A stretch of DNA of 64,000 bases from an uncultured Verrucomicrobia subdivision 3 bacterium (GCA_903895255.1 CAITTG010000092.1:64306-128305), one strand, 5' to 3'; positions 1-52,404 are shown, counted from the first letter of the stretch. The notes: generated by a model from the letters alone, not told the origin. A program made the numbers and translations.

Positions 1-785
1 CGATGACTTTTACCATCCCACAACCAGATGCGGCGAACCCCGCTATCCGCGCAATATTCGTTATTATATAACAACAGGTGACGGTTTACCGGCGAGAATT
101 GCACATGGGTCACCCAGGCTTTGGGAACCGGTTCACAAGCCACCAAGTATCCCGTGGCGGTGTCATAGATCCGCAAATACGAGGAGAGCCCCTCCGCCTG
201 GATCCGTTGATCCACCTCGAAATTGGATTTGCCCGCCACCTGCTGGTAGCCTTCCAGGGCCCGGGCATCGGTGGTGGGCACGCAGAGCCAGGAACCGTCC
301 GCCGAGACATGGGTGAAGGCGGTGACCTGATCCGGGGGCAATTCGGCCAGCACTTTTTGCCGGCCATCCAGTGTCACCGAGCAAACCTGCCGATCCTGAA
401 GGTAATACACCACCCCGGTGCGGGGATCGAGGCTGACACTGCCCTTGCCAAAGCCCCGATAGGGTTGACCGTCGAAATACACATAGGATTTCAAGATGCC
501 CTCCGTGTTGGTGGTCAACTGCCGTTCCGACCCGGTCGTTAAATCCCGGGTGAAAAGATTCGGGTTGCCGGTCCGGTCACTAATGAAAACCAGATGCCGG
601 TCATCGGCGGTGAGGCTGGACGAGGTGAACTACAGCAACTGGTTGTTGCCGGTGTTCGTGGCGGTCACCATGCGGGCCGCGGTGCGATGGGAATTATCGA
701 CCACCACGCCGGGCTGACCGGCCGCCAAATGGGCGGCAAAAAAAAGACTGCTCCAACCAATCAGAAACAAGCGCCATGCATTCAT
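1..785 (-). pseudogene. Oligogalacturonate-lyase-like (PL22-like) / TolB-type beta-propeller secreted protein. The frame is interrupted by an in-frame TAG at 630..632, and the 3' end lies outside the window.
   Basis: Absent from the ORF track because there is no start codon after the stop and the frame runs off the window edge. Manual translation starts at the ATG at 785, which overlaps the GH95 stop as ATGA. It reads MNAWRLFLIGWSSLFFAAHLAAGQPGVVVDNSHRTAARMVTATNTGNNQLL*FTSSSLTADDRHLVFISDRTGNPNLFTRDLTTGSERQLTTNTEGILKSYVYFDGQPYRGFGKGSVSLDPRTGVVYYLQDRQ...WVTHVQFSPVNRH... The signal peptide and the propeller-like body are in the same frame. The family call is from memory of the 'LYF..s...DG..lvF.SDR.G..NLF..DL.tg...QLT' pattern. 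Confidence 0.55.
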
Positions 786-3220
786 AAATGCCAAAAACCG
801 GGAGTTTTAACCCTCCCTTGTGAATCCACCAAAAACAACTGGCCCGGGCGGGTGGGCAAGGTCACCCACCGGCCGGCGGCATGCAAGCGCAGAGGATGCC
901 CGAGCAGGGACTTGATGCGGGCGTTTTGGAGCGCGCCATGGCTCCAGGTCATGGCGACTTCAAAACCACCGCGCGCGCGCAAACCGCTGACCTGACCGGC
1001 GGGCCAGGCCCGGGGCAGCGCCGGCAATAATTCCACCTCGTAAACGCCATTGGTGTCGCAGGTCTGACTTTGCAGGAGTAATTCGCCGATGGCGGCGGTC
1101 TGGCCCAGGTTGCCATCAATTTGAAAATCGCAGAAACCCGGAAAGCGCGCGGTAAGGTTGGCATTGACTGCCTGGTGCAGGTGGGTATCGAGCACCTGCA
1201 AAGCGGTGTCACCGTCGTGCAGCCGCGCATAGACGTTGGCTTGAAAGGCCCCCTGCCAGCTCCCTATCCGGCCGTGCTGCCACATTTGCTCATGATCGAA
1301 AATTTTGCGCACCCCCGCGGCCAGTTCCGGTGTGCCGGCGGGGGTGATTTGCGCGCTGCAAATCAGGCCCCAACTGGACAGGGCCTCGTCATGCGCCATC
1401 CGCGGCCAGTCCGCGAGATACTCCTGCAATTCCCCGGAGGTGGGGCTGACGCGCATGGGCGGCAAGCGGGGCAGCGCTTTTTCCAGCTCCTGTCGAAACG
1501 CCGCGTCCGTGTCGAGAATGCGGGTGGCGCGAATACAGTTTTGAAACAGCTCGCGAATCATCTGCATGCTCGCGGTCGGCCCCAGGCAAACCGAGCCCGT
1601 GGTGCCGTCGGGTTTTTGCCAGAGATTTTCAAAATTAACATCCGGCCCGGTGACCAGCCAGCCGTGGTCCGGCTCCGCCACCAGGGAGTCGAGATAAAAT
1701 TGCGCCGCCCCTTGCAGGACCGGCCAGATTTCCGCTAGGTAGGCCGTATCGCCGGTGAACGCATAATGCTCCCACAGGTCCTGGCACAACCAGGCGCTGC
1801 CCACTTGAAAGATGGCCCATCTCGCCCGGCCCGAGACCGGTCCGGCAGTGCGCCAGATATCCGTGTTGTGATGCGCCATCCAGCCCCGCGCCCCGTAAAG
1901 TTCCCGCGCCACATTGGTACCGTCCACGCTGAGCTCCCGGGTCAGGGATATCAACGGCAGGTGGCATTCCGACAGATTGGCGGTTTCCACCGGCCAGTAG
2001 TTGATTTCGGCGTTGCAATTCAAGGTCCAGTTGGCCGCCCACGGCGGATAGAGCGAGTTATTCCAAAGGCCTTGCAAATTGGCGGGCTGCGTGCCCGGCC
2101 GGGAGCAGGAAATCAGCAGGTAACGGCCGAATTGATAGTACAGCGCCGCCAATGCCGGATCGTTGCCGGGCTGATAGGCCTTGACCCGCTCATCCGTCGG
2201 CAGCGCTTCCGCCGCCGGGTTGTGGCCGAGATCCAGTTTAACGCGTTGAAAGAGGTGTTGATAGTCGGCCATGTGCGCGGCCAGCAACTGGCGGTAGCGT
2301 TGCCCCGCCACGGCCGACCAAGCCTGTTCACAGAGCGCCCCGGGATCACGGCCCGCCTGGCTGGGGCTGCTATGCGGGCCGTTGTAGCTGGTGGCCGCGA
2401 CCAGCAGCAGGGTGACGGCATCGCACTGCTCCGCCACGACACCATTTGTCGTATACCGAATACGTCCACCTGACGCCGTTGCCGCCAGGCGGGCTGCAAA
2501 AGTCATGCCCCGAGGATTGGCGTTCGTGTCGTAAATGTGAATATGCTTGTGGTAACTGTCCGAATAACTGGGGCAACGACCGGCCAGCCAGTAGGAATCG
2601 AGCCCGATGGTGGTTTGGTGGGGCAATTGGCTGTCGAGAGCGGTGGCAAAGGAGATTTTTCCCGGCTGGCTGGCGGTCAGCCGCACCACAATGGCCTGCG
2701 CGGGGTGGGAGGCGAATATTTCGCGGACATAGGTCACACCGCCGACCTCATAACTTTCGCGCACCACACCACGGGATAAATCGAGTTCACGGCGATAATG
2801 AGTCGCCGCATTCGTGGCGGCGAAATCAATCTGCAGATCGCCCAAGGCCAGGTAATTTTCATCGTAGCGGCCGAGCATGTTTGTTTCGACGAGCTGTTGC
2901 GCCGCGAGTTCGTGTCCGGCCAGCAACTGGCGGCGGATTTCGGGCAGCGCGGGCAAGCCATTGGAGTTGATGTTTTCGTAGGGCTCGCCGGACCAAAGCG
3001 TGTCCTCGTTCAAGTCAATGCGCTCGCGGGCGACCCCACCCCAAACGGCGCCGCCCAGCCGGCCATTCCCGATAAAGAGCGATTCCGACCATTTTGTGGC
3101 CGGGTGCAGGTACCACAGCGCGGGCTCGCCCGGCGAGCGGCGGTCGTCCGCCAACCCCATGGTGGGAAGGCCAGTCGTCAACGTGATAAACAAACAGAGG
3201 TAATAAATATAAATTCGCAT
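782..3220 (-). CDS. Glycoside hydrolase family 95 (alpha-L-fucosidase-type), secreted
   Basis: 812-aa ORF with a signal peptide (MRIYIYYLCLFITLTTGL). GH95 hallmarks seen: DTLWSGEPYE, YRRELDLSRGVV.E.Y, ANLQGLWNNSLYPPWAANWTLNCNAEINYWPVE and DIWRTAGPVSG. Confidence 0.85.
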   Translation of the reverse strand: MRIYIYYLCLFITLTTGLPTMGLADDRRSPGEPALWYLHPATKWSESLFIGNGRLGGAVWGGVARERIDLNEDTLWSGEPYENINSNGLPALPEIRRQLLAGHELAAQQLVETNMLGRYDENYLALGDLQIDFAATNAATHYRRELDLSRGVVRESYEVGGVTYVREIFASHPAQAIVVRLTASQPGKISFATALDSQLPHQTTIGLDSYWLAGRCPSYSDSYHKHIHIYDTNANPRGMTFAARLAATASGGRIRYTTNGVVAEQCDAVTLLLVAATSYNGPHSSPSQAGRDPGALCEQAWSAVAGQRYRQLLAAHMADYQHLFQRVKLDLGHNPAAEALPTDERVKAYQPGNDPALAALYYQFGRYLLISCSRPGTQPANLQGLWNNSLYPPWAANWTLNCNAEINYWPVETANLSECHLPLISLTRELSVDGTNVARELYGARGWMAHHNTDIWRTAGPVSGRARWAIFQVGSAWLCQDLWEHYAFTGDTAYLAEIWPVLQGAAQFYLDSLVAEPDHGWLVTGPDVNFENLWQKPDGTTGSVCLGPTASMQMIRELFQNCIRATRILDTDAAFRQELEKALPRLPPMRVSPTSGELQEYLADWPRMAHDEALSSWGLICSAQITPAGTPELAAGVRKIFDHEQMWQHGRIGSWQGAFQANVYARLHDGDTALQVLDTHLHQAVNANLTARFPGFCDFQIDGNLGQTAAIGELLLQSQTCDTNGVYEVELLPALPRAWPAGQVSGLRARGGFEVAMTWSHGALQNARIKSLLGHPLRLHAAGRWVTLPTRPGQLFLVDSQGRVKTPGFWHL

Positions 3221-3587
3221 AAAATCATGACACCTCGAGGTGCTCGGCCAGGCTGGCTAATTCCAGACTGGTGGCTGGCTTAGTTTGACCAATCGCATCA
3301 GCTCCTGGCCAGAAATATTCCGGACCGAAATCCGAAGGTCATAAACACCCGGCGTCAAATCCACCGGGCCAAGCGCATCCGTGAGTTGGTTTCCCCACCG
3401 AACCGGGCCGGTAAATTGGACCCGCGACGAACGGTAGTCACATTACGCTATCATCCTGAGGGCCGGCAGGAAATTTCAAAAGGGTCCGGTTTTCGCGAAG
3501 AGCCGGACTGGCGAGGCAGCGAAGCCACCAATGGAATTGCCAGCGCAATCAAAATGGTAAAATATAGGCTCAAGTGGATCCCAGCCC

Positions 3588-6500
3588 ATGGAACCTGTGA
3601 AAACCAGCGGTCCCGCCATGCGGACCATTATACATTTAGACGCGGATGCGTTCTTTGCTTCCGTGGAGCAATCGGCGGACGCGCGCCTGCGGGGCAAGGC
3701 CATTGCCGTGGGGGGCGAAAGCCGGGGCATCATCGCCTCCGCGTCCTATGAGGCACGGCAGTTCGGCATTTACACGCCCATGCCCACCGCCCGGGCGCGC
3801 AAGCTGTGTCCCCAGTTGATTGTGCTGCCCGGTGATTACGAGCGGTACGAGCAGTTTTCCAACTGGATGTTTGGATACGCCTACGATTTCACCCCGAACG
3901 TGGAGCAAACGTCGATTGACGAGGGGTACTTTGACATCACCGCCAACCAAAGTCAGCCCGCTCCGGACATTGCCCGGACCATCAGCCGGGCCATCCGGCA
4001 GTCGCTCAAAATCACTGTCAGCGAAGGCCTGGCCACGAACAAGCTCATCAGCCAGATTGCCTCAAAACTCAACAAACCGGCGGCTTTCCAGGTAGTGCCG
4101 GCGGGCCGGGAAAAATCGTTCCTGCATCCCCTGCCCAATCGCTGGCTGCCGGGCGTGGGCCCGCAGGCCGCCCTGCGCCTGAATGCCGCGGGACTGGCGG
4201 AGATCGGCCAGATTGCCGCCACGCCGGTGGACGTGCTGGAATTGCTCCTGGGCCAGCAGGCACCGGCCCTGCGCCAGTTTGCCAACGGCATTGATGAGCG
4301 CCCCCTGATTCCAGCGGGCGAACCGCAGAAATCCTTCAGCCAGCAGGAAACCTTCGCCGAGGATGTGACCGATGAGGAATATGTCGGGGCCGTGCTGCGG
4401 CGCATGGCCGACCAATTGTTTGCCAAGGTGCGCGCGGAGGGCCGCAGTGTGCGCACCCTGACGGTCAAGGTGCGCTATAACGACCGGGACGAGAACCAGC
4501 GGGCATGCAGCCTGCGGGAGCCCACGGATTTGGAAACGGATGTTTACGGGCGGCTGTCCGGCCTGCTCAAGGAAGCCTGGCAGCGGCGCGTGAGCCTGCG
4601 CCTGGTGTCATTGAAATTATCGAATGTCTATGCCGGGATGTTTCGCAGCGAACTGGCGCTGGAAACCAACGCACGCCAGCATGAGGCCCGGGAACGACTG
4701 GCGGTGGTATTGGATGAACTGCGGCGGACCAAAGGCTGGTCGGTGGTGCTGCGCGGCCACGACCTGCGCCTGCGCGACGCGCCCCGTGACCTCGTGAAGG
4801 AACAGGCGCAACCGAAGGTCGCCATCCGGTATCCAGTCCGCCGAATCACCCGGCCGCCGGTGGCCGCGGCGCCTTACATTCCGCTCCGGGCGCGCAGTTA
4901 CTACACGTTTCTTGACTCCACGTTGTCCCCCGCCGCCCTGGTCAACCTGGCCAAACAACATGGCCAGACGGCCGTGGCGCTGACTGACCTGGGGAATTTA
5001 CATGGAGCGGTGGAATTCGCACAGGCGGCGAAGCGGGCGGGGATACAGCCGGTCTTCGGCACGGAATTGCGGGTCCAAGACCAGCCGCTGCTGCTGTTCG
5101 TGGCATCGGCGGCAGGCTATGCCAATTTGAACCGGCTGCTCTCGCTCAAGGCGGGCACGGATCATGCCGAGGGTGCGGTCGCGGCCCAGCAGCGGCGTCC
5201 CCTGCCCCGCGAACGACTGGAAGAATTCGGCGGCGGCCTGATCGCCGTCAGCCCGGACACGACGCTGGCGGAATTGTTTCCCGGTCGCTTCTATCAAATG
5301 GCCACCAAAGGAAGGACCGGCGGCCAGCACGCCGTGGTGGCCTGTCCGGCGATTCACTATGCGCTGCCGGGGGACCGGTTGAAATATGACATTGTGCAGT
5401 CCATCCGCACCCTGACCCTGCTCCGCCAGGCGCATCCGGAGAAACGCCCGGATGGCGCGCTCCATTTCCGCACTCCGTCCGAGCTGGCGGGCGCGTGCCG
5501 GGAACATCCGGAATGGGTGGCGCACACGCGGGAAATCGCGGAGCGCTGCCAGTTTGACCTGCCGTTCGGCAAGCCGCAATTCCCGGCGTTTGTCCCGCCG
5601 GACGGATCCACGCCGCGCGAATTTTTGCACCGGTTGGTGGCGGACGGGTTGCGATCCCGTTATGGCGCGCAGGCCAAAACCCACCAGCCGCAGGTGGCGC
5701 AGGAATTGCAGATCATCACGGCCGTGGGCTACGAGGAATATTTTCTGGTGGTCTGGAACATCCTGCAAGAGTGCCGGCGGCAGGGGATCGAATGGATCAC
5801 GCGGGGGAGCGCGGCGGATTCGCTGGTTTGTTACTGCCTGGGCATTAGTGACGTCTGCCCCATCCGTTTCCGGCTCTATTTCCGGCGGTTCCTGAACCAG
5901 GAGCGCATGGCGTTGAACAAGCTGCCGGACATCGACGTGGATTTTCCCCACGACCGCAAGGACGATGTGGTCAACATCCTCTTCGCCAAATATGGCCGCG
6001 ACCATTGCGCCGTGGTCGGGGGTTTCTCCACCTTCCAGGCGCGCAGCGCCTTTGCCGACGTGGCCAAGGTGCTGGGCATGGCCGAGCGCGAGGTGCGTAA
6101 ATTCACCCATTATTTTCCGTGGAGTTTCGGCGGCGGCTGGGGACCGGAAGAGCCCGCTGTGCAGACCGCCGATGAATTGCGCGCACAACTGACAGCCAGC
6201 CCCGAAAACCGCGACCTGCCCTTGAACGAGGAGCCTTTCAAAACCACCCTGGACATGGCGGTATTGCTGGACGGCTTCCCGCGGCATCCCAAAATGCACC
6301 CCTGCGGCGTGGTGCTCTCCCGCCAGCCCATGCACGAACTCACGCCCACGTTCATCGCCAACAAAGGCTGGCCCACGACCCACTATGACATGGACGCCGT
6401 GGAGGTCATCGGCCTGGTGAAAGTGGACGTGCTGGCCCAGGGCGGCCTGGCCGTGATGCGCGATGCCCGCGCCGCCCTCGCCCGCCGGGGGGTGACCGTG

Positions 6501-7955
6501 GATTTGAAGGTCCTAGAGCCGTGGGCAGACCCGGCGGTCTGGGACATGATTGCGGGAGGCGGCGGGAGATCGGTGCATCACATTGAAAGCCCGGCCATGA
6601 CCAGCCTGTGCCGGCAATGCCAGGTGCGGGACATTGACACGCTCATCGCCATCGTGAGCGTGATCCGCCCCGGAGCCGCCAACGAGGGCAAGAAACTGGC
6701 CTTCACCCGGCGTTATCAAGGGCTGGAGCCGGTCACGTATCCCGATCCCTCCCTGGCGGACGTTTTGTCCGACACCTTCGGCCTGGTGATTTATGAGGAA
6801 CACATTCTGCAAATCTGCGAGGCCTTCGCCGGCCTGCCCCCGGGCCGGGCGGATGTGTTGCGCCGGGCGTTGAACAAGCAGAAACGCGCCGTCATCGCAG
6901 AAATTTGCCGGGAATTTATCGAATCAGCCGCGGCACGGGGGCACACCCGGGCAAAAATCGAGGAGGTGTGGGGGCTGGTCACAGGCTTTGCCGGGTATGC
7001 GTTTTGCAAAGCGCATTCCACCGCGTACGGCGTGGAGGCCTACCAGTCCGCCTGGCTGAAGCGCTATTATCCGGCCGAATTCATGGCCGCGGTGCTGACC
7101 AATGGCAAGGGCTTTTATGATCCGCTGGTGTATGTGCTGGAATGCCACCGGCTCGGCCTCACCCTGCTATCCCCCTCCGTCAATGACCCGGGCCCGGCAT
7201 TCACCGCCCACGGCCAAGCCATCCGCGTGCCGCTGACCCGCGCACAAGGCTTGACCGAAGACACCGTAAACCGCTTGCTGGCCGAGCGGGCCCACGGGGA
7301 ATTCAGCTCCCTGGCAAATTTTTACGAGCGTGTCCGCCCCCACCCCGAGGAACTGGAGGCGATGATCCGCGCCGGGGGGATGGATGAATTTGGCCCGAGC
7401 CGCACCCGCGCATTTTGGGAGGCCCAGCAACTGCTCAAGGCCGACCGGCGGCAGCCCCGGTCCACCCGGGGCGCGCGGAATCTGGAGTTCGCCTTTGAAC
7501 CGCCCAAGGATCTGCTGGCATCCTTCTTTTCCAACCCCGCCAGCCTCCTGCGCGAACCCACGCGCCAGGAGCGGCTGGAGGCGGAAACCGCCTTGTTTGG
7601 CCACACCGTCAGCGGCCATCCGCTGGAATTGTTTCCCGACATCGCCTGGGACACCTACTGTCCGGTGGCCCGCCTGGGCGAACACCTCGGCGAAACGGTG
7701 GTGACGTGCGGCCTGGTGGTGGAGCAGCGCACCCACCATCAGGTCACCGGCGAACCCATGAAATTCCTCACCCTGGCCGACTGGACCGGGATGGTGGAGA
7801 CGGAACTCTTCGCGCAGAGCTACCGCAACTACGGCCTGGCGACCATCCGTTATCCCGTGCTGGAAGTCACCGCCACGGTGGAACCTTTTGAAAATGGCCG
7901 GGGCTTTTCCCTGCGCGTCCTGCGGGCGGGAAAACCGCGCGGGGGAACCGGGTGA
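3588..7955 (+). CDS. dnaE2: Fusion protein: Y-family DNA polymerase (DinB/Pol IV-like, catalytic residues intact) joined to a C-family error-prone polymerase alpha subunit (DnaE2/ImuC-like)
   Basis: Single uninterrupted 1,455-codon frame. The N-terminal part shows MRTIIHLDADAFFASVEQ, SYEARQFGI, SIDEGYFDIT and GLATNKLISQIASK. A 36-aa Arg/Pro linker spans nt 4764..4871. The C-terminal part starts with a degenerate PHP motif (YIPLRARSYYTFLDS) and continues with GYEEYFLVVWNIL, RGSAADSLVCYCLGIS, PDIDVDF and a C-terminal OB fold. A more DinB-like start is Met11 at nt 3618. Confidence 0.85.
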   Translation: MEPVKTSGPAMRTIIHLDADAFFASVEQSADARLRGKAIAVGGESRGIIASASYEARQFGIYTPMPTARARKLCPQLIVLPGDYERYEQFSNWMFGYAYDFTPNVEQTSIDEGYFDITANQSQPAPDIARTISRAIRQSLKITVSEGLATNKLISQIASKLNKPAAFQVVPAGREKSFLHPLPNRWLPGVGPQAALRLNAAGLAEIGQIAATPVDVLELLLGQQAPALRQFANGIDERPLIPAGEPQKSFSQQETFAEDVTDEEYVGAVLRRMADQLFAKVRAEGRSVRTLTVKVRYNDRDENQRACSLREPTDLETDVYGRLSGLLKEAWQRRVSLRLVSLKLSNVYAGMFRSELALETNARQHEARERLAVVLDELRRTKGWSVVLRGHDLRLRDAPRDLVKEQAQPKVAIRYPVRRITRPPVAAAPYIPLRARSYYTFLDSTLSPAALVNLAKQHGQTAVALTDLGNLHGAVEFAQAAKRAGIQPVFGTELRVQDQPLLLFVASAAGYANLNRLLSLKAGTDHAEGAVAAQQRRPLPRERLEEFGGGLIAVSPDTTLAELFPGRFYQMATKGRTGGQHAVVACPAIHYALPGDRLKYDIVQSIRTLTLLRQAHPEKRPDGALHFRTPSELAGACREHPEWVAHTREIAERCQFDLPFGKPQFPAFVPPDGSTPREFLHRLVADGLRSRYGAQAKTHQPQVAQELQIITAVGYEEYFLVVWNILQECRRQGIEWITRGSAADSLVCYCLGISDVCPIRFRLYFRRFLNQERMALNKLPDIDVDFPHDRKDDVVNILFAKYGRDHCAVVGGFSTFQARSAFADVAKVLGMAEREVRKFTHYFPWSFGGGWGPEEPAVQTADELRAQLTASPENRDLPLNEEPFKTTLDMAVLLDGFPRHPKMHPCGVVLSRQPMHELTPTFIANKGWPTTHYDMDAVEVIGLVKVDVLAQGGLAVMRDARAALARRGVTVDLKVLEPWADPAVWDMIAGGGGRSVHHIESPAMTSLCRQCQVRDIDTLIAIVSVIRPGAANEGKKLAFTRRYQGLEPVTYPDPSLADVLSDTFGLVIYEEHILQICEAFAGLPPGRADVLRRALNKQKRAVIAEICREFIESAAARGHTRAKIEEVWGLVTGFAGYAFCKAHSTAYGVEAYQSAWLKRYYPAEFMAAVLTNGKGFYDPLVYVLECHRLGLTLLSPSVNDPGPAFTAHGQAIRVPLTRAQGLTEDTVNRLLAERAHGEFSSLANFYERVRPHPEELEAMIRAGGMDEFGPSRTRAFWEAQQLLKADRRQPRSTRGARNLEFAFEPPKDLLASFFSNPASLLREPTRQERLEAETALFGHTVSGHPLELFPDIAWDTYCPVARLGEHLGETVVTCGLVVEQRTHHQVTGEPMKFLTLADWTGMVETELFAQSYRNYGLATIRYPVLEVTATVEPFENGRGFSLRVLRAGKPRGGTG

Positions 7956-7967
7956 ATCATGCAAAAA

Positions 7968-10900
7968 CTAATTTTTCACGGCAAACTGGTAACTGCCTGA
8001 TGCCACGGCCAGGACGGCGCAGCCACCTTCATTCCGCAGCCATTTCACTCCCGCCGCCTGCGGCAGCGGCTGGCCGCTTTCGGTGATTTGGCCAGCCGTG
8101 GTGGCGGGGCCGGCCGGCAGGTATACGGTGGCGGAGGTGTTGGCGGGGATGGTAACATCCAGAGCCAGCCCCTCCCCGGTTCGCCGCCAGGACGACTTGA
8201 TCGGTCCGCGAATGCAGTCATAGGCAGCGGCGACATTCGTGAGTCCGGGATCCAGTTGCGGCGCGATAATAATGTGCTGGTACGCCGTGCCATCGGGGCG
8301 GATGCCGCCGAGGTTTTCCAGCATCCATTGATAAACCGCGCCGAAGGAGTAGTGGGCGAAGGAATTCATGCCGGGATCCTGAAAACCCTTTTCCGGAGTC
8401 CAGCCATCCCAGCGCTCCCAAATGCTGGTGGCCCCGTGCTTGATGGAGAAGCCCCAGGAGGGAAACGTGTCATTGTGAATCAGCCGGCAGGCGACGTCGT
8501 TGCGCCCGATCTTGGCCAGTACCAGCATCAAATCCTTGGTGCCGATGAAGCCGGTGGACAAATGCCAGTCGCGCGCCTGAATGTTTTCGACCAGATGCTG
8601 CGCGGCGAGTTTCGCCCGGTCACCATCCACGAGATCAAATCCCAGCGCCAGCACATAACCGGCCTGGGTGTCGCCTTGCACGCGGCCGTCATCGGTGACA
8701 TAGGCCTGGTTGAAAGCCGCCTTGAGGCGCTCGTACAGCGCAGTGTATTTGGCCGCATCCCCGGTTTTACCCAGCACGGCCGCCGCCCGGGCCACCAAGC
8801 GGGTGGATTGCGCAAAGTAGGCAGTGCAAATGACATCTTTGGGGGTGGCCGCCTGGATGCTGAGCCAGTCGCCGAAACAATGATAATGATCGGGCGGGAG
8901 CAGGTTGGGCTTGCTGCGGTTCTGGCAGAAAGCGATAAACCGGGTCATGGCCGGATAATAGGTTTCCAAAATCCGTCGATCACCATAGACATCGTAAATC
9001 GTCCACGGGCAAATCACGCCGGAATCCGCCCAGGCGGGACCGCCATCGTCGCCGGCAATTTTCACCGGCGCCACCATGGGGAATTCCCCGTCCGCGCGCT
9101 GGCCGTCGGCGATCAAATCCACCAGCCATTTGGTGTAAAACGCCTGCACGTCACAATTCAGGGTGGCGGTGCGGACATAGACCTGCGCATCGCCCGTCCA
9201 GCCCAAACGCTCATCGCGCTGCGGACAGTCGGTGGGGATGTCGATGAAATTCGCCCGCTGGGTCCAGTAAATATTGTTGTGCAACTGGTTCAACATGGGG
9301 TCGGAACAGGCAAAACTGCCGGCGACCGGCGTGGCACTGCTCAGGGCCAGACCGACCACCGTGTCCGCCGCGGGCGGTTGGGTCAGGCCGGTGACCTCGA
9401 CATATTGAAATCCATGAAAGGTGAAATGCGGTTCCCATTCCTCCACCCCGCTGCCCGCGCACACATAGGTGTCCGTGGACCGTGCGGAGCGCAGGTTGGT
9501 GGTGTAAAGGGTGCCATCCGGATTGAGCCGCTCGGCAAAGCGCAATTGGATGCGCTGACCGGGCCGGCCCGAAATTTTGAGGCGGGCGATCCCGGCAAAG
9601 TTTTGCCCCAGATTGAGCACATAAACGCCGGGCCGGGGTTCGTTGATAGTTTTGGCCTTGAACTCCGCGAGAACCCGCACCGGCGGACCGGGATGGGCCT
9701 GCATGAGTGGATGCACCGTGGCATCGGTGACCACGGGTTGCCACGACTGGTCGGCAAAACCCGGACGGTCCCAACCGGTGGGCTCCCGGCGGGCATCAAA
9801 GGTTTCGCCCTTGAGAAAGTCGGCTTCCTGCACCGCCCCGGTGCTCGCTTTCCAGTCCGGACCGGTCCCAATGACTGCAGAGGAACCGTCGGCGTAGTCC
9901 AACTGCAATTGCATCCGCACGCGCGGCAGTTTGCCATAGTAATCGCGCTGTTTGGCATAACCGATGTAGCCGGCGTACCAGCCATCCGCCAGCACCGCGC
10001 CCAGGGCATTTTCCCCGGATCGAATTAATGAGGAGACGTCGTATGTGCGGTAATGCACCCGTTTGTCATAATCGGTCCAGCCAGGCGTGAAAAAGTCATC
10101 ACTGACGAGGTGCCCGTTAAGATGCGCCTCCACCAAGCCCAAGGCACTCACGTAAAGCGTGGCCCGCCGAACCGGCCGGCCGGCTTGAAAGGTCGTGCGC
10201 AAGTAAGGTGCCGGAGGCAAAAATGGTTCGACAGCACCGAGTATTCCCCAAGGGGCCACGCCAGGTTCCCCAATAATCCGTGGGGTTGACCAAGCATCCT
10301 CCGGCAGTGACACGCTCAGCCAGTTTGTGCCCGGGCTCCGGGCGGCGCGCCAGGAACCATCCGTCACCAGGCGAAAGGTTTGCCCATCCGCGGTGGTCAC
10401 GACCAAGGAGGCCAACAATCCGGCCGCGCCGGCATCGGCATTCTCCGCCAGCACCAAAAGATGGTTAACCCCGGGTTGCAGGGCGGTGGAGACGTCCGTT
10501 TGCTGGGGATGCCGCCAGCTTTCATTGCCGGGCGGGCTGGCTAAAACAGTTTGGTTATTGATGGCAAACTGAAAGCCGTCATCCGCCGTGGCCGTCAATT
10601 CAGCCCGCGAGATAGTAACACCGGCCGGGAGAGAGAAATCACGCGCAAACAGGCGAAAGCCCTTGGGCGGCTTGCCGCCATCCGGGGCGAACCAGAGCCA
10701 CTGCGCATGCTCAAACGGGGACACAGCCTGGCAGTTCGTGCGGGCGGCATCATAGCCAATCCATTGCGCCAGCCAGTCCGTCGGATCCAGCAAACCCATC
10801 GACCATTCCGCCGGCGTGCTCCAGACCGCCTGGTTCTGCGCATCCCAGACCCGTACCTTCCAGAAACAATGCTCCTGAGACAGGAGCGGCGAGCCGGCAT

Positions 10901-11231
10901 AAAGTGTGCCAATGGACTCATCGCTCTCCACCCGGCCGGAGTCCCACAAATCTCCCTTGTCCTGTTGCAATAATACCGGGGTGCTGGCGACCAGGATTTG
11001 ACAAGCCACCTGGCGGGCGCCCCGCTCGGCAGAAACCAGTTGCCAGGACAGTCGCGGGTGGATTTCGTCAATGCCCAGAGGGTTTACCCGATATTCGCAA
11101 CGCAAACCAACCGGGGTTAGACCGGAGGTGGTCATGCCATTCTCCGATGCCGCGCATCGATCCGTCAACCATCCGGCCAACAAACCCAAAAATAAAAGGC
11201 AAGGGCGAGCGACGTGAATGATGAATTTCAT
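7968..11231 (-). CDS. Alpha-L-rhamnosidase, GH78, with a CBM-like beta-sandwich inserted after the N-domain
   Basis: 1,087-aa ORF with a signal peptide. GH78 motifs seen: LRCEYRVNPLGIDEIHPRLSWQL, ATLYVSALGLVEAHLNGHLVSDDFFTPGWTDYDKRVHYRTYDV and DCPQRDERLGWTGDAQV. The inserted domain covers aa 175-329 (nt 10245..10709). Confidence 0.9.
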   Translation of the reverse strand: MKFIIHVARPCLLFLGLLAGWLTDRCAASENGMTTSGLTPVGLRCEYRVNPLGIDEIHPRLSWQLVSAERGARQVACQILVASTPVLLQQDKGDLWDSGRVESDESIGTLYAGSPLLSQEHCFWKVRVWDAQNQAVWSTPAEWSMGLLDPTDWLAQWIGYDAARTNCQAVSPFEHAQWLWFAPDGGKPPKGFRLFARDFSLPAGVTISRAELTATADDGFQFAINNQTVLASPPGNESWRHPQQTDVSTALQPGVNHLLVLAENADAGAAGLLASLVVTTADGQTFRLVTDGSWRAARSPGTNWLSVSLPEDAWSTPRIIGEPGVAPWGILGAVEPFLPPAPYLRTTFQAGRPVRRATLYVSALGLVEAHLNGHLVSDDFFTPGWTDYDKRVHYRTYDVSSLIRSGENALGAVLADGWYAGYIGYAKQRDYYGKLPRVRMQLQLDYADGSSAVIGTGPDWKASTGAVQEADFLKGETFDARREPTGWDRPGFADQSWQPVVTDATVHPLMQAHPGPPVRVLAEFKAKTINEPRPGVYVLNLGQNFAGIARLKISGRPGQRIQLRFAERLNPDGTLYTTNLRSARSTDTYVCAGSGVEEWEPHFTFHGFQYVEVTGLTQPPAADTVVGLALSSATPVAGSFACSDPMLNQLHNNIYWTQRANFIDIPTDCPQRDERLGWTGDAQVYVRTATLNCDVQAFYTKWLVDLIADGQRADGEFPMVAPVKIAGDDGGPAWADSGVICPWTIYDVYGDRRILETYYPAMTRFIAFCQNRSKPNLLPPDHYHCFGDWLSIQAATPKDVICTAYFAQSTRLVARAAAVLGKTGDAAKYTALYERLKAAFNQAYVTDDGRVQGDTQAGYVLALGFDLVDGDRAKLAAQHLVENIQARDWHLSTGFIGTKDLMLVLAKIGRNDVACRLIHNDTFPSWGFSIKHGATSIWERWDGWTPEKGFQDPGMNSFAHYSFGAVYQWMLENLGGIRPDGTAYQHIIIAPQLDPGLTNVAAAYDCIRGPIKSSWRRTGEGLALDVTIPANTSATVYLPAGPATTAGQITESGQPLPQAAGVKWLRNEGGCAVLAVASGSYQFAVKN

Positions 11232-42692: not shown

Positions 42693-45600
42693 TCACGGCA
42701 CCTCAAGCCGATAGAACTGTTGCCGGTTGCGTGGCTGGAAGACATTGGTAACGGTGAAATTTCCGCTGGCGTCAAATTGATTGGTTAGCAACGGGGTCCA
42801 ATTCAACAACGGGGTGGCCAGGTTGGTCGTCGTCAGCAAGTAATAACTGCTGCCGGGAGCGCCACCGGAACCGGTCAGCACCAGACTGCCGGGCGTGGAC
42901 TGCACCGGCCCAAAGCGAGGGGCGGTGACAATGATATTAACCTTGCCCACCACGGAGGAGTCGATGGTGTAATTATATCCGACCGGGGCCGTGCCGATAA
43001 CCAAAGCGCCCACGCTCAGGGCGCCACCGTAAGTGAAGAGCGGATAAGTTCCGGGACCGAAACCGGCTGTTGCGCTTAGATTAAGGGTGCCGGCCAGGGT
43101 CAGATCACCGGCAACCGCCACCTGGCTGCCACCGGCACCCACCTGAAAGTCCAGGGTGCTGCCATTGTTCAAGCCCAAGTCATTGGTGATGGTTAGGGTG
43201 CCGAATCCATTGCTGCCCGGGGCCAGGGTGGCCCCGGCGGTCAGGCTTACCTGGCCGCCGATGATGCCGTTGCCCCCAAGCGTGGCGCCGGGATTAACCG
43301 TGACGGTGCCGGAACCGGTGCCGCTGCCAACCGGGCTGTTGATAATCAACGCACCACCATTAACCGTAGTGTTGCCGGAGAAGGTATTGTTGCCTGTCAG
43401 CGTTAGCGCGGCCGGACCGTTGACAACCAGGGCCGTCGGGGAGGCGCCATCGGAAATCGTGCCGTTGAAAACACTGTTGGTGTTGACGCCGCCGACCACA
43501 TAGGTGGTCTGATTTGCGGGAGCGGTGGAGGCCCCCGCCAGAGCGGTGGCCGGACCGCCAAACAGCGCCCCGAAGGAGACGGTCGCGCCGCCATTTTTGT
43601 TATTGATCCCGCCGTTGACGCCGAAATTCCAAACGGCGGCGGCGCTGCCAAAGGCGGTGGTGTTCACCTCGCGGAGCCAATTGCCGGTGGTAAAGTTAAT
43701 GGTGCCACTAAAACCGCTCCAATCACCGCTGGGCGAGAAGGTGCCGCCACCGCCCAGCGTCACGGTGAGCAGGCCGGAACCCTGTAAATTGAAAGTGGCG
43801 TAGGGCTGGCCGTAGGTGACCAGCGAGTTGGTGCCGGCCGAGGTGATGGTGGTGCCCGTGCCCACGCCATTGAGGAAGAGGGTGCCACCATTGAGAACAA
43901 CCGGACCAAAGCCGCCCGCGTAAAAATTATTGACCAGTTGCAAAGTGCCGCCATTCACAAAGGTGCCGCCGGTGTAGCTATTGCTGGAATTCAAGGTCAG
44001 CGAGCCGGGACCGTTCTTGACGAGGCTGGCGATGCCGCCCAGCACGCCACCACCAATGGTGTAGGCGGTCGTGTTGTTGGTTACCAGCACCGCCGCCGGC
44101 TGGACCACTCCGTTGATATTCACGTTGCCGTTGGTGGAGGTGTCGTCAAAGCGCACCAGGTCCAGATTATAAAACTCGTCGGCCCTGATACCATTCAGCC
44201 AGTTGACCGTGGTGGCCAGGTCCCAATTACCGCCATTGGCACCCTGCCACACGAGGGAACTGGCGCTGCCGGAGACCACCAGTTGCACCCCGGTGGTGGT
44301 GTTCTGGAGGCTAAAGCCCTGCCGGGTGCTGGTGGGCAGGTCTGTCACGAGACTCCCGCCATAATTATTACCCGCCGCGCCACCGATCAAGGTGTACGTC
44401 CCCGCGCCGAGCGCGTTGTTGACGAGGTTCAGGTTGTACGTTTGCACGCCGGTCTCATTGAGCGTGCCGCCGGGCAGCAGAATCTCATCATTGGGACCGC
44501 CGGGCGAACTGGACAGGTCAAAAACCAGCGCCGACGTGTTCAGATTCAGACTGTTGCTCACCGTCAGGGTGCCGAAGCCACCGTTGCCCAGGTCCGGTTC
44601 CAGGATGCCGCCACTCTGGATGGTCACCCCATTGCCCAGGATGCCGTCGCCTTCCAGAACCGCACCGCTATTAACGGTCACCGGGCTGCTGCTGAAACTG
44701 CCGGCCACCGCCAGGATACCGCTGCTCACCGTGGTGTTGCCGGTGTGCGTGCTGTTGCCGCTCAGGGTCAGCGTACCGGTGCCGGTTTTGATCACATTCG
44801 CCGAGCTTTGAAACTGGCCCGCAAAGGTGGTGCTGAGATTGAGCGCTCCAATGCTAAAGGTGGGGGCGCCAGCGTATTGATCATAGAACGCCGCGTTGGG
44901 ATTGTTGCCGGACAACGCGCCGAAGTAGTAGGTATTGCCGGCCGAGTTGTCGTGGAAACCCAGGGTGACGGGCGCGTTGAGGGTGGTTAACGCATCTGAA
45001 AATCCGGAGAACGCGCCGCCATTGGCGACGAAGAGCAAGCCACCGCTGCCAAGCAGGTTAATCGTGCCGGTAAACGCCCCAGCGTTGCCCTTGATTTCGT
45101 CCGTGGCCCCGGTGTTTTGAACATTTAGGTTGAGCGTGCCCGCGCCGGTGAGGGTGCCGGTCAGGTCGATATCATTGCCCAAATCAATCGTGGCCGTGGA
45201 CCCGGCGGGCACCACCAGCGCATTGGCGAGGTTCAGGTAATCGCCGGCCGCGTAGTTATTAACCACCGTGCCATTCTGGATGGTGAGAGCACCAGTGCCC
45301 AGGGAACTGCCATCATTAAACTGAATGGTGCCGCCGTTCAAAGCCTCGGCTCCACTGAGACTGTTGGCGTTGTTCACGGTAAGGGTGCCCGAGCCGGATT
45401 TAGTGAGCGTGCCCGCGCCACTGATCGAGCCACTGCCGCCAATGGTGTAATTTTGCGTGGCGTTGAACGTCACACCGGCGGGCGCGACCAGGCCGTTGAT
45501 TTGAATTGCCGGGCTGGCGGAGCCGGTGTCATCAAAAGTCACAGTGTCGCTGGAATTAAAGGTGCCCAGATTGTTGCCATTAAACCAGTCGGCGGTATTG

Positions 45601-48600
45601 GTGGTGTCCCAGATGTTATTGACGCCATCACCGCGCCACACCAGGTTTTTGGGGAGGTAGGTGATGGACACCAGCAGGCCCATCGTATTGGTCATGGTGG
45701 TGCCGTCCGGGTCCGCGGCGACGAAGTTGAAACTGGTCAGCCCGGTGAAACCGGGATTGGGTTTGAAAAAGGCATAGTGGCTGTTGGTGACCGTCACCGA
45801 GCCGTTGGCCGCGCCGGACACGGTGTAGGTCCCGCCGTTGGTGAAACCAAGAGTATATTGCCACAAGTCAATCACGGTGGCATTCGTCTGGACAAAGGCG
45901 TGCGGCGCGGCCAGCCAGTTGATGTAATCTTCAATGTAGGTGTAACCATCGGGCGCGGTGGCCATGGCCTGGTTGGTGTAAAGGTTCAGGCCCACGGCGT
46001 TCTTCCAGATGTCGGGAATGCCGTCGCCATCGGTTTCCACCAACTGAGTGCCGCCGTTGATGGTGCCATAACCGCCGTTGCCCAGGCCGGTGTTAGCCGG
46101 GCTGGTGATCAAATTACCAGCGGTGCCAAGCGACATTACCTGGCTGATGACGAGCGCATCCAATTGATCGGACGGAAAAGGACCGGCGCTGGAGACATCC
46201 GTGCGGTAGGCCGTCGTGGCAGAAACCGTGGGAATAGTGGCAGTGATGGGGGACCATGGGGTGGCCGACACGGTGTCCCCGCCCGGCGCGGTGGGAACCC
46301 CGTTCAACGTGCCGTTGCCGCTGGTGTCCAGCAAATTGCCCACGGCATACACCGTCTGGCCGCCGTCGAACTGGAAGAAATCATCCTGCGGGGCGGTGCT
46401 GGAAGGACCGGTGATGAAGTAATTATTAACAATGTCATGGCTGAAATGCCCGGCGGTGTCGGCAGTGGTGTAGCCGGCCTGATAATCATAGACCACATTG
46501 TTGACATAGACCGTGCTGGCCTTGGCGAGGGGCTGGCGGTTGTGGGCATTGACCCAGAGATTGTTAACATATGTGGCATCGCCACCTTCCACGTGGGCTC
46601 CGAACTGCTGGTTGATGGGGTCGGCGATAATGCAGTTTTGAATCGTAAAGTCAGTGGTGTGGACGGCATCAAAACTATCCCACTGGCCAAACTCCACCGA
46701 GGTGTGGTCAAAAATCATGTTGCTGGCATAACCATTGCCCGAGCCGATGTTGATGCCGCTGGAACCGGAGCTGCTGCCGCCCTGCCGGACGCGCAGACCA
46801 CGGCAGATGATGTTGTTATCGCCGTAGAAAGACAATTCATTCCCCATCAAACCAATGCCACCACCCGGAGCCGTCTGGCCGGCGATGGTCAGATTGCTGG
46901 CGGCCGCCACCGCCGAGCCCAGGTTGATGTAACCGCCGACATCGAACACAACAATGCGGTTGCCCTGGCTGACGGCCGCCCGGAACGTGCCCGGACTGCC
47001 ATCATCGGCGAGGGAAGTCACATGGTAAACCGTGCCACCGCGGCCACCGGTGGCGTTGGCGCCATATCCCAGCGCGCCCGGGAAGGCCATCACGGGAGGA
47101 TAGACGATGGGATTAGTGATCGATCCGGCGGCGATGGTCAGGTAAACCGCGCCATTGGTGATTACCACCGAGGGATAGGTGTTGGTGACCAGGCCGTTGC
47201 CGGTCACGGAGACTGCTGTGGGATCAGAACCCGTGATGGAGCCGGTGCCGGCAACATCATTGGTGACAAGCAGGTATTGGCCGAGTCCGAGCGCCGGTCC
47301 GGGGTTGTTGATGGTAAAGACTGTGCTGGTGGCCAGCGTCAAAGTACCGTTGGCCACGATCAACGAGGCGCTGCCATTGGAGTAGGTGAGGGAGACGATT
47401 CCCGGGCCGGTGGCGATGCTGCCATTGATCAAACCAGGAGAAGAGCTGTTACCCAGGGATTGCGTGGCGGACAGGGAAAATCCACCGAGGGCGGTGACAT
47501 CAAAGGTGGCCGCGCTGGCAACAATAATGTGATCGCTATCGGCAATCGAACCGGAGCCGCCAAGAGCCAGCGTGCCAGCGTTGATGGTGGTGGGGCCGGT
47601 ATAAGTATCCGCCCCTTTCAAAGTGAGGGTCCCGCTGCCCAGTTTGGTGAGACCGCCATCCGGCGTGCCGGCGCCATGCAGCAAGGGCGCCGCCAGTGTG
47701 ATCGTGTTGCCATTGTCATTGACGATCGCCCCGCCCGCATTCACCACGGCGGTGAGCTGGACGGGGGTATTCGGCAAGAAACCATTGCCCAGATCACCCG
47801 TCAAGGCGGCCAGAGTGCCACCGTTGAAGTAAATGGCACTGCTTTGATTGCCCCAGGTGGATTCCTGAAAATTCTGCACCGCCAGCGTGCCCCCGTTCAG
47901 GTTCAATGCGAAGCTGCCGACCGTGCTGCCACCCGAGGTGTAAAACATATCGAGCGCGCCATTCACAGTCACCAGCGTCGTGGTGTCGCCGGGCGTGCCG
48001 ATGGTCAGCGACCCGGTGCCACCGGGCCGGCCCTGACCGTTGCCGTAACTCAAGGCGCGACCGTTGCCGTCCGCATTGGCCGTGACTTGTGCCCCGTTGG
48101 TGATGGTCAGCGTGGCGAGCGTGCCATAAGTGCCGCTGCCGCTGCCGCCGGTGGGCGAGGTAATATACAAGCCATTGGGAGAAACCAGCGTCGCGCCATT
48201 AATGGCGACATTGGCCTGGCCGTATTGTCCGGAAATATCCAAATGACTGCTCAGGCTGCTGGGACTGCTGATCAGGAGCCCGCCACTATACACCACGGTG
48301 TTGCCGGTATAGGTCGCGTCCGACAAAGCCAGCGTGCCCGAGCCCCATTCGCTCAAGGAACCAATCCCCGTGAGGTTGCCAGCGAACAGGGTGTTCGCAT
48401 TGTTATTACCCACGGTCAAATTGAGCGCCGCGCCGGCCAGGTTGGTGAGTCCGAGGCTGAGGGCGGTATTGGTGCCCGCCAGTTCACCCAGAATCGCCGT
48501 CGTGATGGCGGGATCAAAAACCACCATGCCACTATTGTAATTCAAAGTGCTGTTGGCGAGCGCGAGGGAATTGGCGAGTTGCAGGACACCGTTGGAGATC

Positions 48601-52184: not shown

Positions 52185-52404
52185 AAAAAGATTCGCAATA
52201 AAATGGGCTCCAAACATACATGTGCTATTCGACGGCAAAACATGACAAAATATCCGGCGGCGACCGCACGATGACTCTGCATTTGGAAAACGGAAAAATC
52301 TTAGACCAATTCGCGCGGTTTGTCGCGCTACCGAAATGGGTGACCGTGCGGGAGCACTTTTGAACGTGCACCGGCTGGGAGAATTAAACTCACCCGCCAA
52401 GGGT

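Follow-up and report, generated by a model that had tools for sequence, protein, structure and literature searches.

A 64-kb window of DNA from an uncultured Verrucomicrobia subdivision 3 bacterium (GCA_903895255.1, CAITTG010000092.1:64306-128305) was used as the reference sequence, and related loci were read with +/-10 kb of their surroundings. The window carries a gene, here called polY::dnaE, in which a DinB-type Y-family DNA polymerase (PolY) is followed in a single open reading frame (ORF) by a C-family polymerase of the DnaE kind. A sequence-only reading of the same DNA had pointed to this arrangement, and its claims are taken up where the results that bear on them are given. The parts of the gene are listed below in window coordinates, with residues counted from the first codon of the open frame.

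3588..7955, + strand: fusion gene polY::dnaE, open frame of 1455 codons
3618..4637, + strand: Y-family (DinB/Pol IV-type) core with palm, fingers, thumb and little finger, residues 11-350 (Pfam, NCBIfam and structure matches)
3639..3656, + strand: palm motif DADAFF with catalytic D18 and D20 and steric-gate position F23 (aligned to DMDAFF of DinB)
3918..3923, + strand: catalytic D111-E112 in SIDEGY (aligned to SIDEAY of DinB)
4644..4661, + strand: hexapeptide RSELAL resembling a clamp-binding motif, residues 353-358, immediately C-terminal to the little finger
4683..4775, + strand: RecA-N-terminus-like (RecA-NT-like) helix-strand EARERLAVVLDELRRTKGWSVVLRGHDLRLR, residues 366-396 (profile alignment, conservation and structure model)
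4776..4877, + strand: variable Pro/Ala/Arg-rich tether, residues 397-430, poorly conserved and disordered in the structure model
4878..5687, + strand: PHP domain with a degenerate metal site (Pfam; high-confidence fold in the structure model)
5622..6938, + strand: C-family core with palm, thumb and fingers (Pfam and Taq Pol III alpha match)
5928..5936, + strand: catalytic D781 and D783 in PDIDVDF (aligned with E. coli D401/D403 and Taq D463/D465)
6426..6428, + strand: third catalytic aspartate D947 in KVDVL (aligned with E. coli D555 and Taq D618)
7155..7409, + strand: tandem helix-hairpin-helix, (HhH)2, duplex-binding domain (Pfam HHH_6)
7428..7562, + strand: variable segment at the place of the DnaE1 internal clamp motif, gapped in 40-42 of 73 family members
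7563..7937, + strand: C-terminal oligonucleotide-binding (OB) fold region (aligned to the Taq alpha OB up to residue 1107 of 1220)

No stop codon interrupted the 1455 codons between 3588 and 7955, as had been claimed from the sequence alone. The conserved start is probably M11, the ATG at 3618, giving a protein of 1445 amino acids (aa), since the 94%-identical ortholog (P0001) is 1445 aa long and its locus (L079) has no upstream ATG; residues 1-10 were gapped in at least 30% of the fused family. Pfam placed IMS at residues 17-160 (E 2.4e-43), IMS_C at 248-347 (E 5.9e-21) and PHP at 433-558, followed by DNA_pol3_alpha at 679-950 (E 3.1e-67), DNA_pol3_finger at 955-1117 (E 3.4e-30) and HHH_6 at 1190-1274 (E 2.9e-16).

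The N-terminal half is, on its sequence, a complete DinB-type Y-family polymerase with intact catalytic carboxylates and is predicted to be active. Its best solved-structure match was DinB (7yll, E 2.4e-58), and over residues 1-392 it scored 271.3 bits on the NCBIfam Pol IV equivalog NF002677, above the cut-off of 256. The cut-offs of the other Pol IV models were not reached, nor was that of the UmuC model (67-72 bits vs 431). A Foldseek comparison of the N-terminal module in the AlphaFold2 (AF2) model with DinB-DNA complexes gave template-modelling (TM) scores of 0.68-0.69 (E ~1e-28). Both D111 and E112 were present in 113/113 fused proteins and D18 and D20 in 111 (the remaining two are N-terminally truncated), while the steric-gate position 23 was F in 105 and Y in six. 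The sequence-only reading had taken residues ~11-392 as the whole polymerase; this stood for the core at 11-350, and residues 351-396 proved to be a conserved tail rather than thumb or little finger.

These residues bear on the possibility that the Y-family module is mainly an ImuB-like adaptor for clamp and RecA recruitment and that the DnaE part does essentially all of the synthesis. Such an arrangement has a precedent in the canonical ImuA-ImuB-DnaE2 system, where the Y-family member is a non-catalytic organiser (PMC6511836), and one unfused relative described below has a PolY without the D-E pair (SVGS for SIDE). An ImuB-type disrupted catalytic site was not seen in the fused proteins: the four carboxylates were intact and conserved, and together with the steric gate they were kept in every complete fused sequence. 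No ImuB-C beta-barrel was found after the RecA-NT-like segment, where just a disordered linker (~34 aa) precedes the PHP domain, and the long linkers of some fused relatives showed no common domain. The half had been called DinB-like and not ImuB-like for its kept carboxylates, with a dead ImuB-like site named beforehand as the observation that would speak against this; the D111/E112 counts and the NF002677 score upheld the call and the alignment of the 113 fused proteins excluded the dead site. The ratio of nonsynonymous to synonymous substitution rates (dN/dS), computed between the window gene and its 94% ortholog, was 0.053 in the PolY core. Together with a score above the Pol IV equivalog cut-off, this makes a predominantly adaptor role quite improbable.

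The C-terminal half had its best solved-structure match in Taq Pol III alpha (2hpi, E 2.4e-117), and D781, D783 and D947 were present in 73/73 fused proteins and, in a broader set, in 112/112. The PHP domain starts with R434-x-R436 in place of H-x-H, the Arg-x-Arg degeneracy reported earlier, and metal-ligand positions were variable or substituted family-wide. For many fused homologs the OB-fold family PF01336 is among the precomputed domains. No tau-binding domain is present, because the half ends ~100 residues short of the DnaE1 C-terminus (E. coli and Taq alpha), with NCBIfam alignments ending at model position ~1046 of 1146. The Pfam calls and the Taq alignment agree with the description from sequence alone of a C-family alpha subunit of DnaE2 size with a PDIDVDF palm, a C-terminal OB fold and no tau tail. 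The pentapeptide RNLEF, which aligned to QADMF (residues 920-924) of E. coli, was considered as a conserved clamp motif and rejected as it was absent or gapped in most family members.

The architecture of this half is DnaE2-like, with PHP, polymerase core, HhH and OB, a degenerate PHP and no tau-binding domain. The earlier label of "DnaE2/ImuC-type" was too specific: the error-prone DNA polymerase (DnaE2/ImuC) model NF004225 gave 528.7 bits vs a cut-off of 939, the DnaE1 model NF004226 gave 645.9 bits vs 1002, and just the Pol III alpha superfamily model was passed among the family models tried. None of nine tested relatives reached the DnaE1 or ImuC-type cut-offs, and by sequence the C-terminal half falls with short DnaE proteins that form a clade of their own. 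The higher score on the DnaE1 model than on the DnaE2 model (646 vs 529 bits) would fit a replicative alpha subunit, that is a DnaE1 substitute with an acquired DinB domain; the cluster names of ten DnaE1-sized matches did not identify a Verrucomicrobiota DnaE1. Such a substitution is nonetheless very unlikely given the shortfall from the DnaE1 cut-off, the lack of a tau-binding domain or a conserved internal clamp motif, the degenerate PHP metal site, the location in a LexA-repressed operon in most genomes and the distance from E. coli DnaE1 in the tree (both described below). All bacteria covered by published surveys also had a DnaE1 or a DnaE3 (PMC3919608, PMC12926913).

In the same comparison with the 94% ortholog, dN/dS was 0.046 in the tail, 0.07 in the DnaE core, 0.09 in the OB and 0.15 in the PHP, with higher values in the linker (0.42) and in segment 1281-1325 (0.69). 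Both polymerase sites are thus not only intact in sequence but, by these ratios, also strongly held by purifying selection.

The junction had been described from sequence as a 36-aa Arg/Pro-rich linker at nt 4764..4871. A variable linker does exist at residues 397-430, and the junction also carries conserved clamp-like and RecA-NT-like motifs. The hexapeptide follows a family pattern of (Q/R/F)-x-E-L-x-L, with L356 in 112/113 and L358 in 107/113 fused proteins and position 353 being R in 63, Q in 22 and F in 19. The conservation of L356 and L358 and the distribution at residue 353 liken it to the Pol IV-type QxxLxL clamp motif. In a profile alignment RSELAL fell on the UmuC clamp motif QLNLF, and unfused relatives carried the canonical QLDLF, QMDLF or QAQLF at this place. 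The family profile of residues 366-396 matched residues 8-33 of E. coli RecA, the N-terminal oligomerisation helix-strand, with a score of 19.7; the scores of 200 shuffles averaged 11.3 and did not exceed 18.0. This segment also aligned to UmuC 367-389, the region of a published RecA-NT-like motif (PMC6511836), and its D376 was present in 113/113 fused proteins and its R389 and H391 each in 112/113. The tether that follows ranged from 23 to 168 aa in 73 fused proteins with a median of 34. Linkers of 83-168 aa were found in some fused proteins, and those of L049, L066 and L076 share (V/Y)VxRQRLG(N/H)S.

An AF2 model of residues 1-700, built from an alignment of 113 diverse fused sequences, had a mean predicted local distance difference test (pLDDT) of 88 and a predicted TM score (pTM) of 0.52. 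Most of the Y-family module was above pLDDT 90 and the helix at 360-382 was at 80-93, while the sole disordered stretch was 401-421 (pLDDT <50). A model built on a shallow set of 38 sequences with 74-94% identity reached pLDDT 45 and pTM 0.29 and was discarded.

It is conceivable that the two modules are independent and that the fusion merely co-expresses Pol IV-like and DnaE2-like enzymes on a flexible leash with no hand-off between them. The disordered linker of unconstrained length, a pTM that gives no fixed module arrangement and the occurrence of close DnaE relatives as solo genes would all suit such an explanation. Against it, the conserved tail lies exactly between the modules, and one ORF has been kept across a clade diverged to ~50% identity though an operon already offered co-expression. 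PolY and DnaE2B are also treated as a physical complex in published models (PMC12926913). Independence of the modules is therefore considered unlikely, while deserving to be kept in view.

The reality of the fusion was assessed across its relatives. A 5.8-billion-protein collection was searched with two queries, the window protein and a fused protein ~50% identical to it, and the best 120 matches of each were taken. All 240 best matches listed carried IMS, IMS_C, PHP and pol3_alpha and almost all were 1260-1550 aa long. Among GTDB species, each scanned in one genome, at least 148 relatives were confirmed, and the 78 loci kept had 49-82% identity with coverage of residues ~10-1451. In the kept loci (~70 independent assemblies) the gene was a single uninterrupted ORF, with contig-end truncations and two possibly frameshifted copies as the exceptions. 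All seven catalytic carboxylates were found in 72/73 fused proteins translated from the loci, the exception being N-terminally truncated. The record titles were almost all of Verrucomicrobiota, including subdivision 3/Pedosphaerales/Limisphaerales, Methylacidiphilales, Chthoniobacterales, 'Spartobacteria' and Verrucomicrobiales.

An assembly or sequencing artefact, in which adjacent polY and dnaE2 genes were merged by a lost stop or a frameshift, would be in keeping with the split polY-dnaE arrangements that occur in relatives and with one protein of a 32-member cluster that is split into 454 + 1007 aa. This explanation is negligible in probability and, on the sequences of the relatives, is already refuted at the family level: the junction was open in the ~70 independent assemblies and the 240 listed protein clusters, which come from different projects, the 94% ortholog shares the open junction, and the linker evolves in frame with dN/dS <1. 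The stop codon or frameshift that might have separated the halves was in this way excluded, the covalent joining of the Y-family part to the C-family polymerase was borne out, and by its distribution in sequence records the fusion is real and ancient within Verrucomicrobiota.

Several individual records deserve mention. The split protein belongs to the P0121 cluster and is represented by P0283 and P0284 on one 7220-bp contig, and the split may be a frameshift introduced by sequencing or else a rare fission in nature. Fusions 59-78% identical to the window protein were found under odd labels (L009, L024, L038, L063, L015, L054, L005 and L071), namely Akkermansia muciniphila, Chitinophaga pinensis, Bifidobacteriaceae, Hyphomicrobiales, Limnocylindrales and Acidoferrum, which probably reflects mis-binning or mislabelling and not horizontal transfer. 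Two full-length fused paralogs (L048 and L074), each ~53% identical to the window protein, lie ~100 kb apart on the same contig (CBDDEB010000003.1) of a Methylacidiphilales metagenome-assembled genome.

Unfused relatives were sought with the C-terminal half in an exhaustive search of 1.84 billion representatives. The matches came in the order of fused clusters, then unfused proteins of 974-1146 aa at 40-55% identity and then a plateau at ~35%. A rough neighbour-joining (NJ) tree of the C-terminal half, covering fused proteins, unfused relatives and E. coli DnaE1, placed the fused proteins in one clade, with the solo DnaEs P0124 and P0126 either basal to it or nested within. Unfused proteins, some of them PolY-associated, followed as outgroups, and E. 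coli DnaE1 was far off. Two loci had the genes as a pair. In L090 a separate PolY, 52% identical to the N-terminal half and with the D-E pair kept, QMDLF and the same RecA-NT-like tail, lies ~5 kb upstream of and on the same strand as a DnaE 46% identical to the C-terminal half. In L082 the PolY without the D-E pair is followed by a MarR-type gene and then by a DnaE 45% identical to the C-terminal half. The fused clade in the tree and the contexts of the unfused relatives point to a single origin: most probably, a neighbouring polY and dnaE were joined one time, in an ancestor belonging to Verrucomicrobiota.

Other features of the unfused loci were recorded. Between the polY and dnaE of L090 (1366-4072) are PemK toxin and TIR-domain genes with a defence or mobile look. 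L087 was considered as a clean split polY-dnaE operon and rejected, since its 'intergenic' stretch is a scaffold gap (a run of 100 N in the polY-dnaE junction at 5871-6000) with a TGA stop before it. Upstream of its polY is a 128-aa ORF (4260-4643) with a LexA-like C-terminus (VIQGVVVALIRR) and no DNA-binding domain, itself preceded by a palindrome. An ORF of 342 aa that closely precedes the unfused DnaE P0132 was rejected as a PolY as it had no PolY similarity. In L092 the unfused P0140 (3994-7194, + strand, 1066 aa) is convergent with a second DnaE-like gene (7780-10881, - strand, 1033 aa), and only a 178-aa phosphoribosyltransferase gene separates the two.

The genomic context of the fused genes was dominated by lexA. 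A tblastn count placed lexA directly upstream on the same strand in 68/79 loci, and six of the remaining loci were cut by contig ends, giving 68/73 informative loci. The upstream LexA consists of LexA_DNA_bind and Peptidase_S24 (Pfam), and the gap between lexA and the fusion had a median of 46 bp and was often 4 bp. A 20-bp palindrome with the consensus TACTATCCATATGGATAGTA overlaps the promoter, downstream of a TTGACA -35 box and ahead of the lexA start codon; a position-specific scoring matrix (PSSM) of this operator gave 11-30 bits in ~40/52 loci, where the 99.99th percentile of the background was 4.2. Two loci without lexA had an operator-type box directly before the fusion. Co-transcription with lexA behind an operator in most genomes suggests that the fusion is damage-inducible there. 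Published DnaE2B-PolY operons 'often, but not universally' include lexA (PMC6511836; PMC12926913).

The arms of the operator vary jointly between lineages, some being of the E. coli-like CTGT-N8-ACAG and some of the GTTC-N4-GAAC type. Variants located ~0-25 bp upstream of the lexA start in L001-L078 (e.g. L021, L005, L004, L029, L060 and L033) included TACTATCC-N4-GGATAGTA, TACTACTC-N4-GAGTAGTA, TAGTGTCT-N4-AGACACTA, TACTGTAT-N4-ATACAGTA and a GTGTTC-N4-GAACAC type, a compact case of operator-repressor co-evolution inside one phylum. Erill and colleagues are said to have given, in 2016, TGTTC-N4-GAACA as the Verrucomicrobia LexA motif. A DUF72 protein (24 loci) and a GIY-YIG protein (11 loci) recur near the lexA-fusion operon, upstream of lexA in L003, L004, L005 and others, and may be further members of a local SOS neighbourhood. 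LexA, DUF72 and GIY-YIG were the only conserved neighbours across the 78 related loci.

The surroundings of the gene in the window are different from those of most relatives:

782..3220, - strand: GH95 gene, divergent neighbour
3221..3617, no strand: upstream non-coding region with no lexA or SOS operator, unlike most relatives
7968..11231, - strand: GH78 gene, convergent neighbour

Four LexA box types, searched with at most one mismatch, had no match in 3221..3587. The operator PSSM derived from the relatives reached at best -5.8 in 3100-3700 and nothing in the window exceeded 6.3. The absence of an SOS box in 3221..3587 was therefore confirmed by both pattern search and PSSM, and it is peculiar to the sub-lineage of the window. 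A tblastn search with 53 LexA proteins found no lexA in the 64-kb window; a weak LexA-like match at ~40.2 kb was the winged helix of a GntR/LacI-type regulator and another at ~48.8 kb lay inside a giant ORF, and neither was taken as lexA. No sigma-70 consensus was found on the + strand upstream of the gene. At the 94% ortholog locus (L079) the convergent GH78 gene is also found downstream and lexA is again missing, and the proximal 175 bp upstream are 78.5% identical between the two, about the neutral level. Judged from these sequences, the sub-lineage of the window has lost lexA and the operator, and the window copy is presumably expressed outside direct LexA control.

No imuA/RecA-like gene adjoined the fusion in the window or was among the conserved neighbours of the 78 related loci, and the claim that no imuA-like gene is adjacent held, the neighbours being GH95 and GH78. 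The statement that the fusion is the only non-glycan gene in the window was roughly true only: the window is rich in carbohydrate-active enzyme (CAZyme) genes, and a histidine kinase and a GntR/LacI-type regulator are also encoded. In L079, GH95 and the fusion are separated by a block consisting of DUF1800, DUF1501 and a 180-aa ORF, which the window lacks; in this sub-lineage the fusion gene appears to have been relocated to, or left behind in, a glycan-utilisation island. The - strand of the window also holds a very long ORF (3303 aa, 42693-52604), with a long antisense ORF at 45453-49787.

With moderate confidence, we read the fusion as a single-chain translesion-synthesis (TLS) machine, a covalent version of the two-gene mutasome of PolY and a short DnaE (DnaE2B-PolY-RecA type), that is normally SOS-induced. 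DNA damage would lead to LexA cleavage and induction of the fusion protein, and the tail between the modules would, as in Pol V, bring it to the beta clamp and the RecA filament tip. The Y-family site may then insert opposite the lesion and the tethered DnaE site extend the distorted terminus, which is the most speculative step and is without direct support. Covalent fusion would guarantee a 1:1 stoichiometry and the joint delivery of the two activities. A more detailed version, offered tentatively as a possibility, is that of a single-chain inserter-extender with RecA- and clamp-dependent recruitment, in which the C-family site would take over the primer end just extended by the Y-family site, and which in the lineage of the window would have turned into a constitutive, LexA-independent factor in tolerance or mutagenesis.

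A number of points weigh against the single-chain machine. Three close DnaE relatives are solo genes with no PolY nearby, and since such solo relatives exist the DnaE part is evidently able to work without a fused or adjacent PolY. The window copy has neither lexA nor an SOS box, so that damage induction is unsupported for the window gene itself. The hexapeptide of the window protein is non-canonical, with R for the usual Q and L for the terminal F, and clamp binding would not be assured. The similarity to the RecA N-terminus extends over just 25 aligned columns (hhalign P ~0.01). In the AF2 model the pTM of 0.52 leaves the arrangement of the modules unfixed, and the reach of both sites to one primer end is unsupported by it. 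Any separate DnaE1, dinB or recA of the same genome would lie beyond the 64 kb that were read, and all of the functional steps above are derived from sequence.

The conserved fusion provides 'Rosetta-stone' evidence that active PolYs and short DnaE2-type polymerases form one physical unit, which previously rested on gene neighbourhood and AlphaFold models (PMC6511836, PMC12926913). One protein in place of a three-part complex would be a convenient experimental system for the division of labour between Y-family and C-family polymerases in mutasomes. It could also help to ask why the Y-family site was kept here and yet inactivated in some other lineages (ImuB, iPolY). The copies in lexA operons and those without lexA offer a natural comparison for the gain or loss of control over error-prone synthesis.

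No published description of a PolY-DnaE fusion was found in the full-text literature, which did not cover subscription journals, and 'undescribed' is therefore provisional. In the Venclovas-group surveys of 2013, 2019 and 2026 (including the 2026 supplements) 'fused' and 'fusion' occurred in unrelated uses only. To that extent, the remark that no characterised two-polymerase fusion is known was sustained. The architecture might have proved to be already common and characterised, and it is common in metagenomes but no characterisation was found. Its public records have generic names such as 'DNA polymerase IV', 'DNA polymerase III subunit alpha' and 'error-prone DNA polymerase'.

In eukaryotic TLS, Rev1 or a Y-family inserter acts with the extender Pol zeta, a B-family polymerase, in a non-covalent complex. 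The fusion is like this two-polymerase system in concept, as a Y-family enzyme is physically coupled to a polymerase of a replicative-type family. It differs in having a C-family DnaE in place of the B-family Pol zeta and a covalent link, and the inserter-extender division is hypothetical for the fusion.

E. coli Pol V Mut (UmuD'2C-RecA-ATP) shares with the fusion the order of little finger, clamp motif and RecA-NT-like segment in the tail and SOS regulation. The fusion has no UmuD partner, a second polymerase replaces the UmuD'-binding tail, and its Y-family core is of the DinB type and not of the UmuC type, as the UmuC model scores given above indicate.

The ImuA-ImuB-DnaE2 system of Mycobacterium, Caulobacter and Pseudomonas resembles the fusion in coupling a Y-family protein to a DnaE-type polymerase with a degenerate PHP, in LexA control and in a Y-family partner with a clamp motif and a RecA-NT-like motif. 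In the fusion the Y-family site is intact whereas that of ImuB is dead, the link is covalent, ImuB-C and an adjacent ImuA are lacking, and the C-terminal half falls well below the cut-off of the ImuC-type model (529 bits vs 939).

The DnaE2B-PolY-RecA module was described by Timinskas and Venclovas (NAR 2019, PMC6511836; NAR 2026, PMC12926913) in Bacteroidetes, e.g. Cellulophaga algicola. There, DnaE2B polymerases pair with active or inactive PolYs bearing RecA-NT motifs in genomes without imuA/imuB (PMC12926913; PMC6511836). The published module consists of separate genes and predicted non-covalent complexes, while the fusion is one polypeptide and occurs in Verrucomicrobiota. Common to both are a short DnaE2-like polymerase, a PolY with a RecA-NT motif and the absence of imuA/imuB (for the fusion, in the adjacent region and the related loci), and the unfused relatives L090 and L082 show the gene-pair organisation of the module. 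By these features, rather than by DnaE2B phylogeny, the fusion resembles a DnaE2B-PolY-RecA module in which the association of the two polymerases has become covalent.

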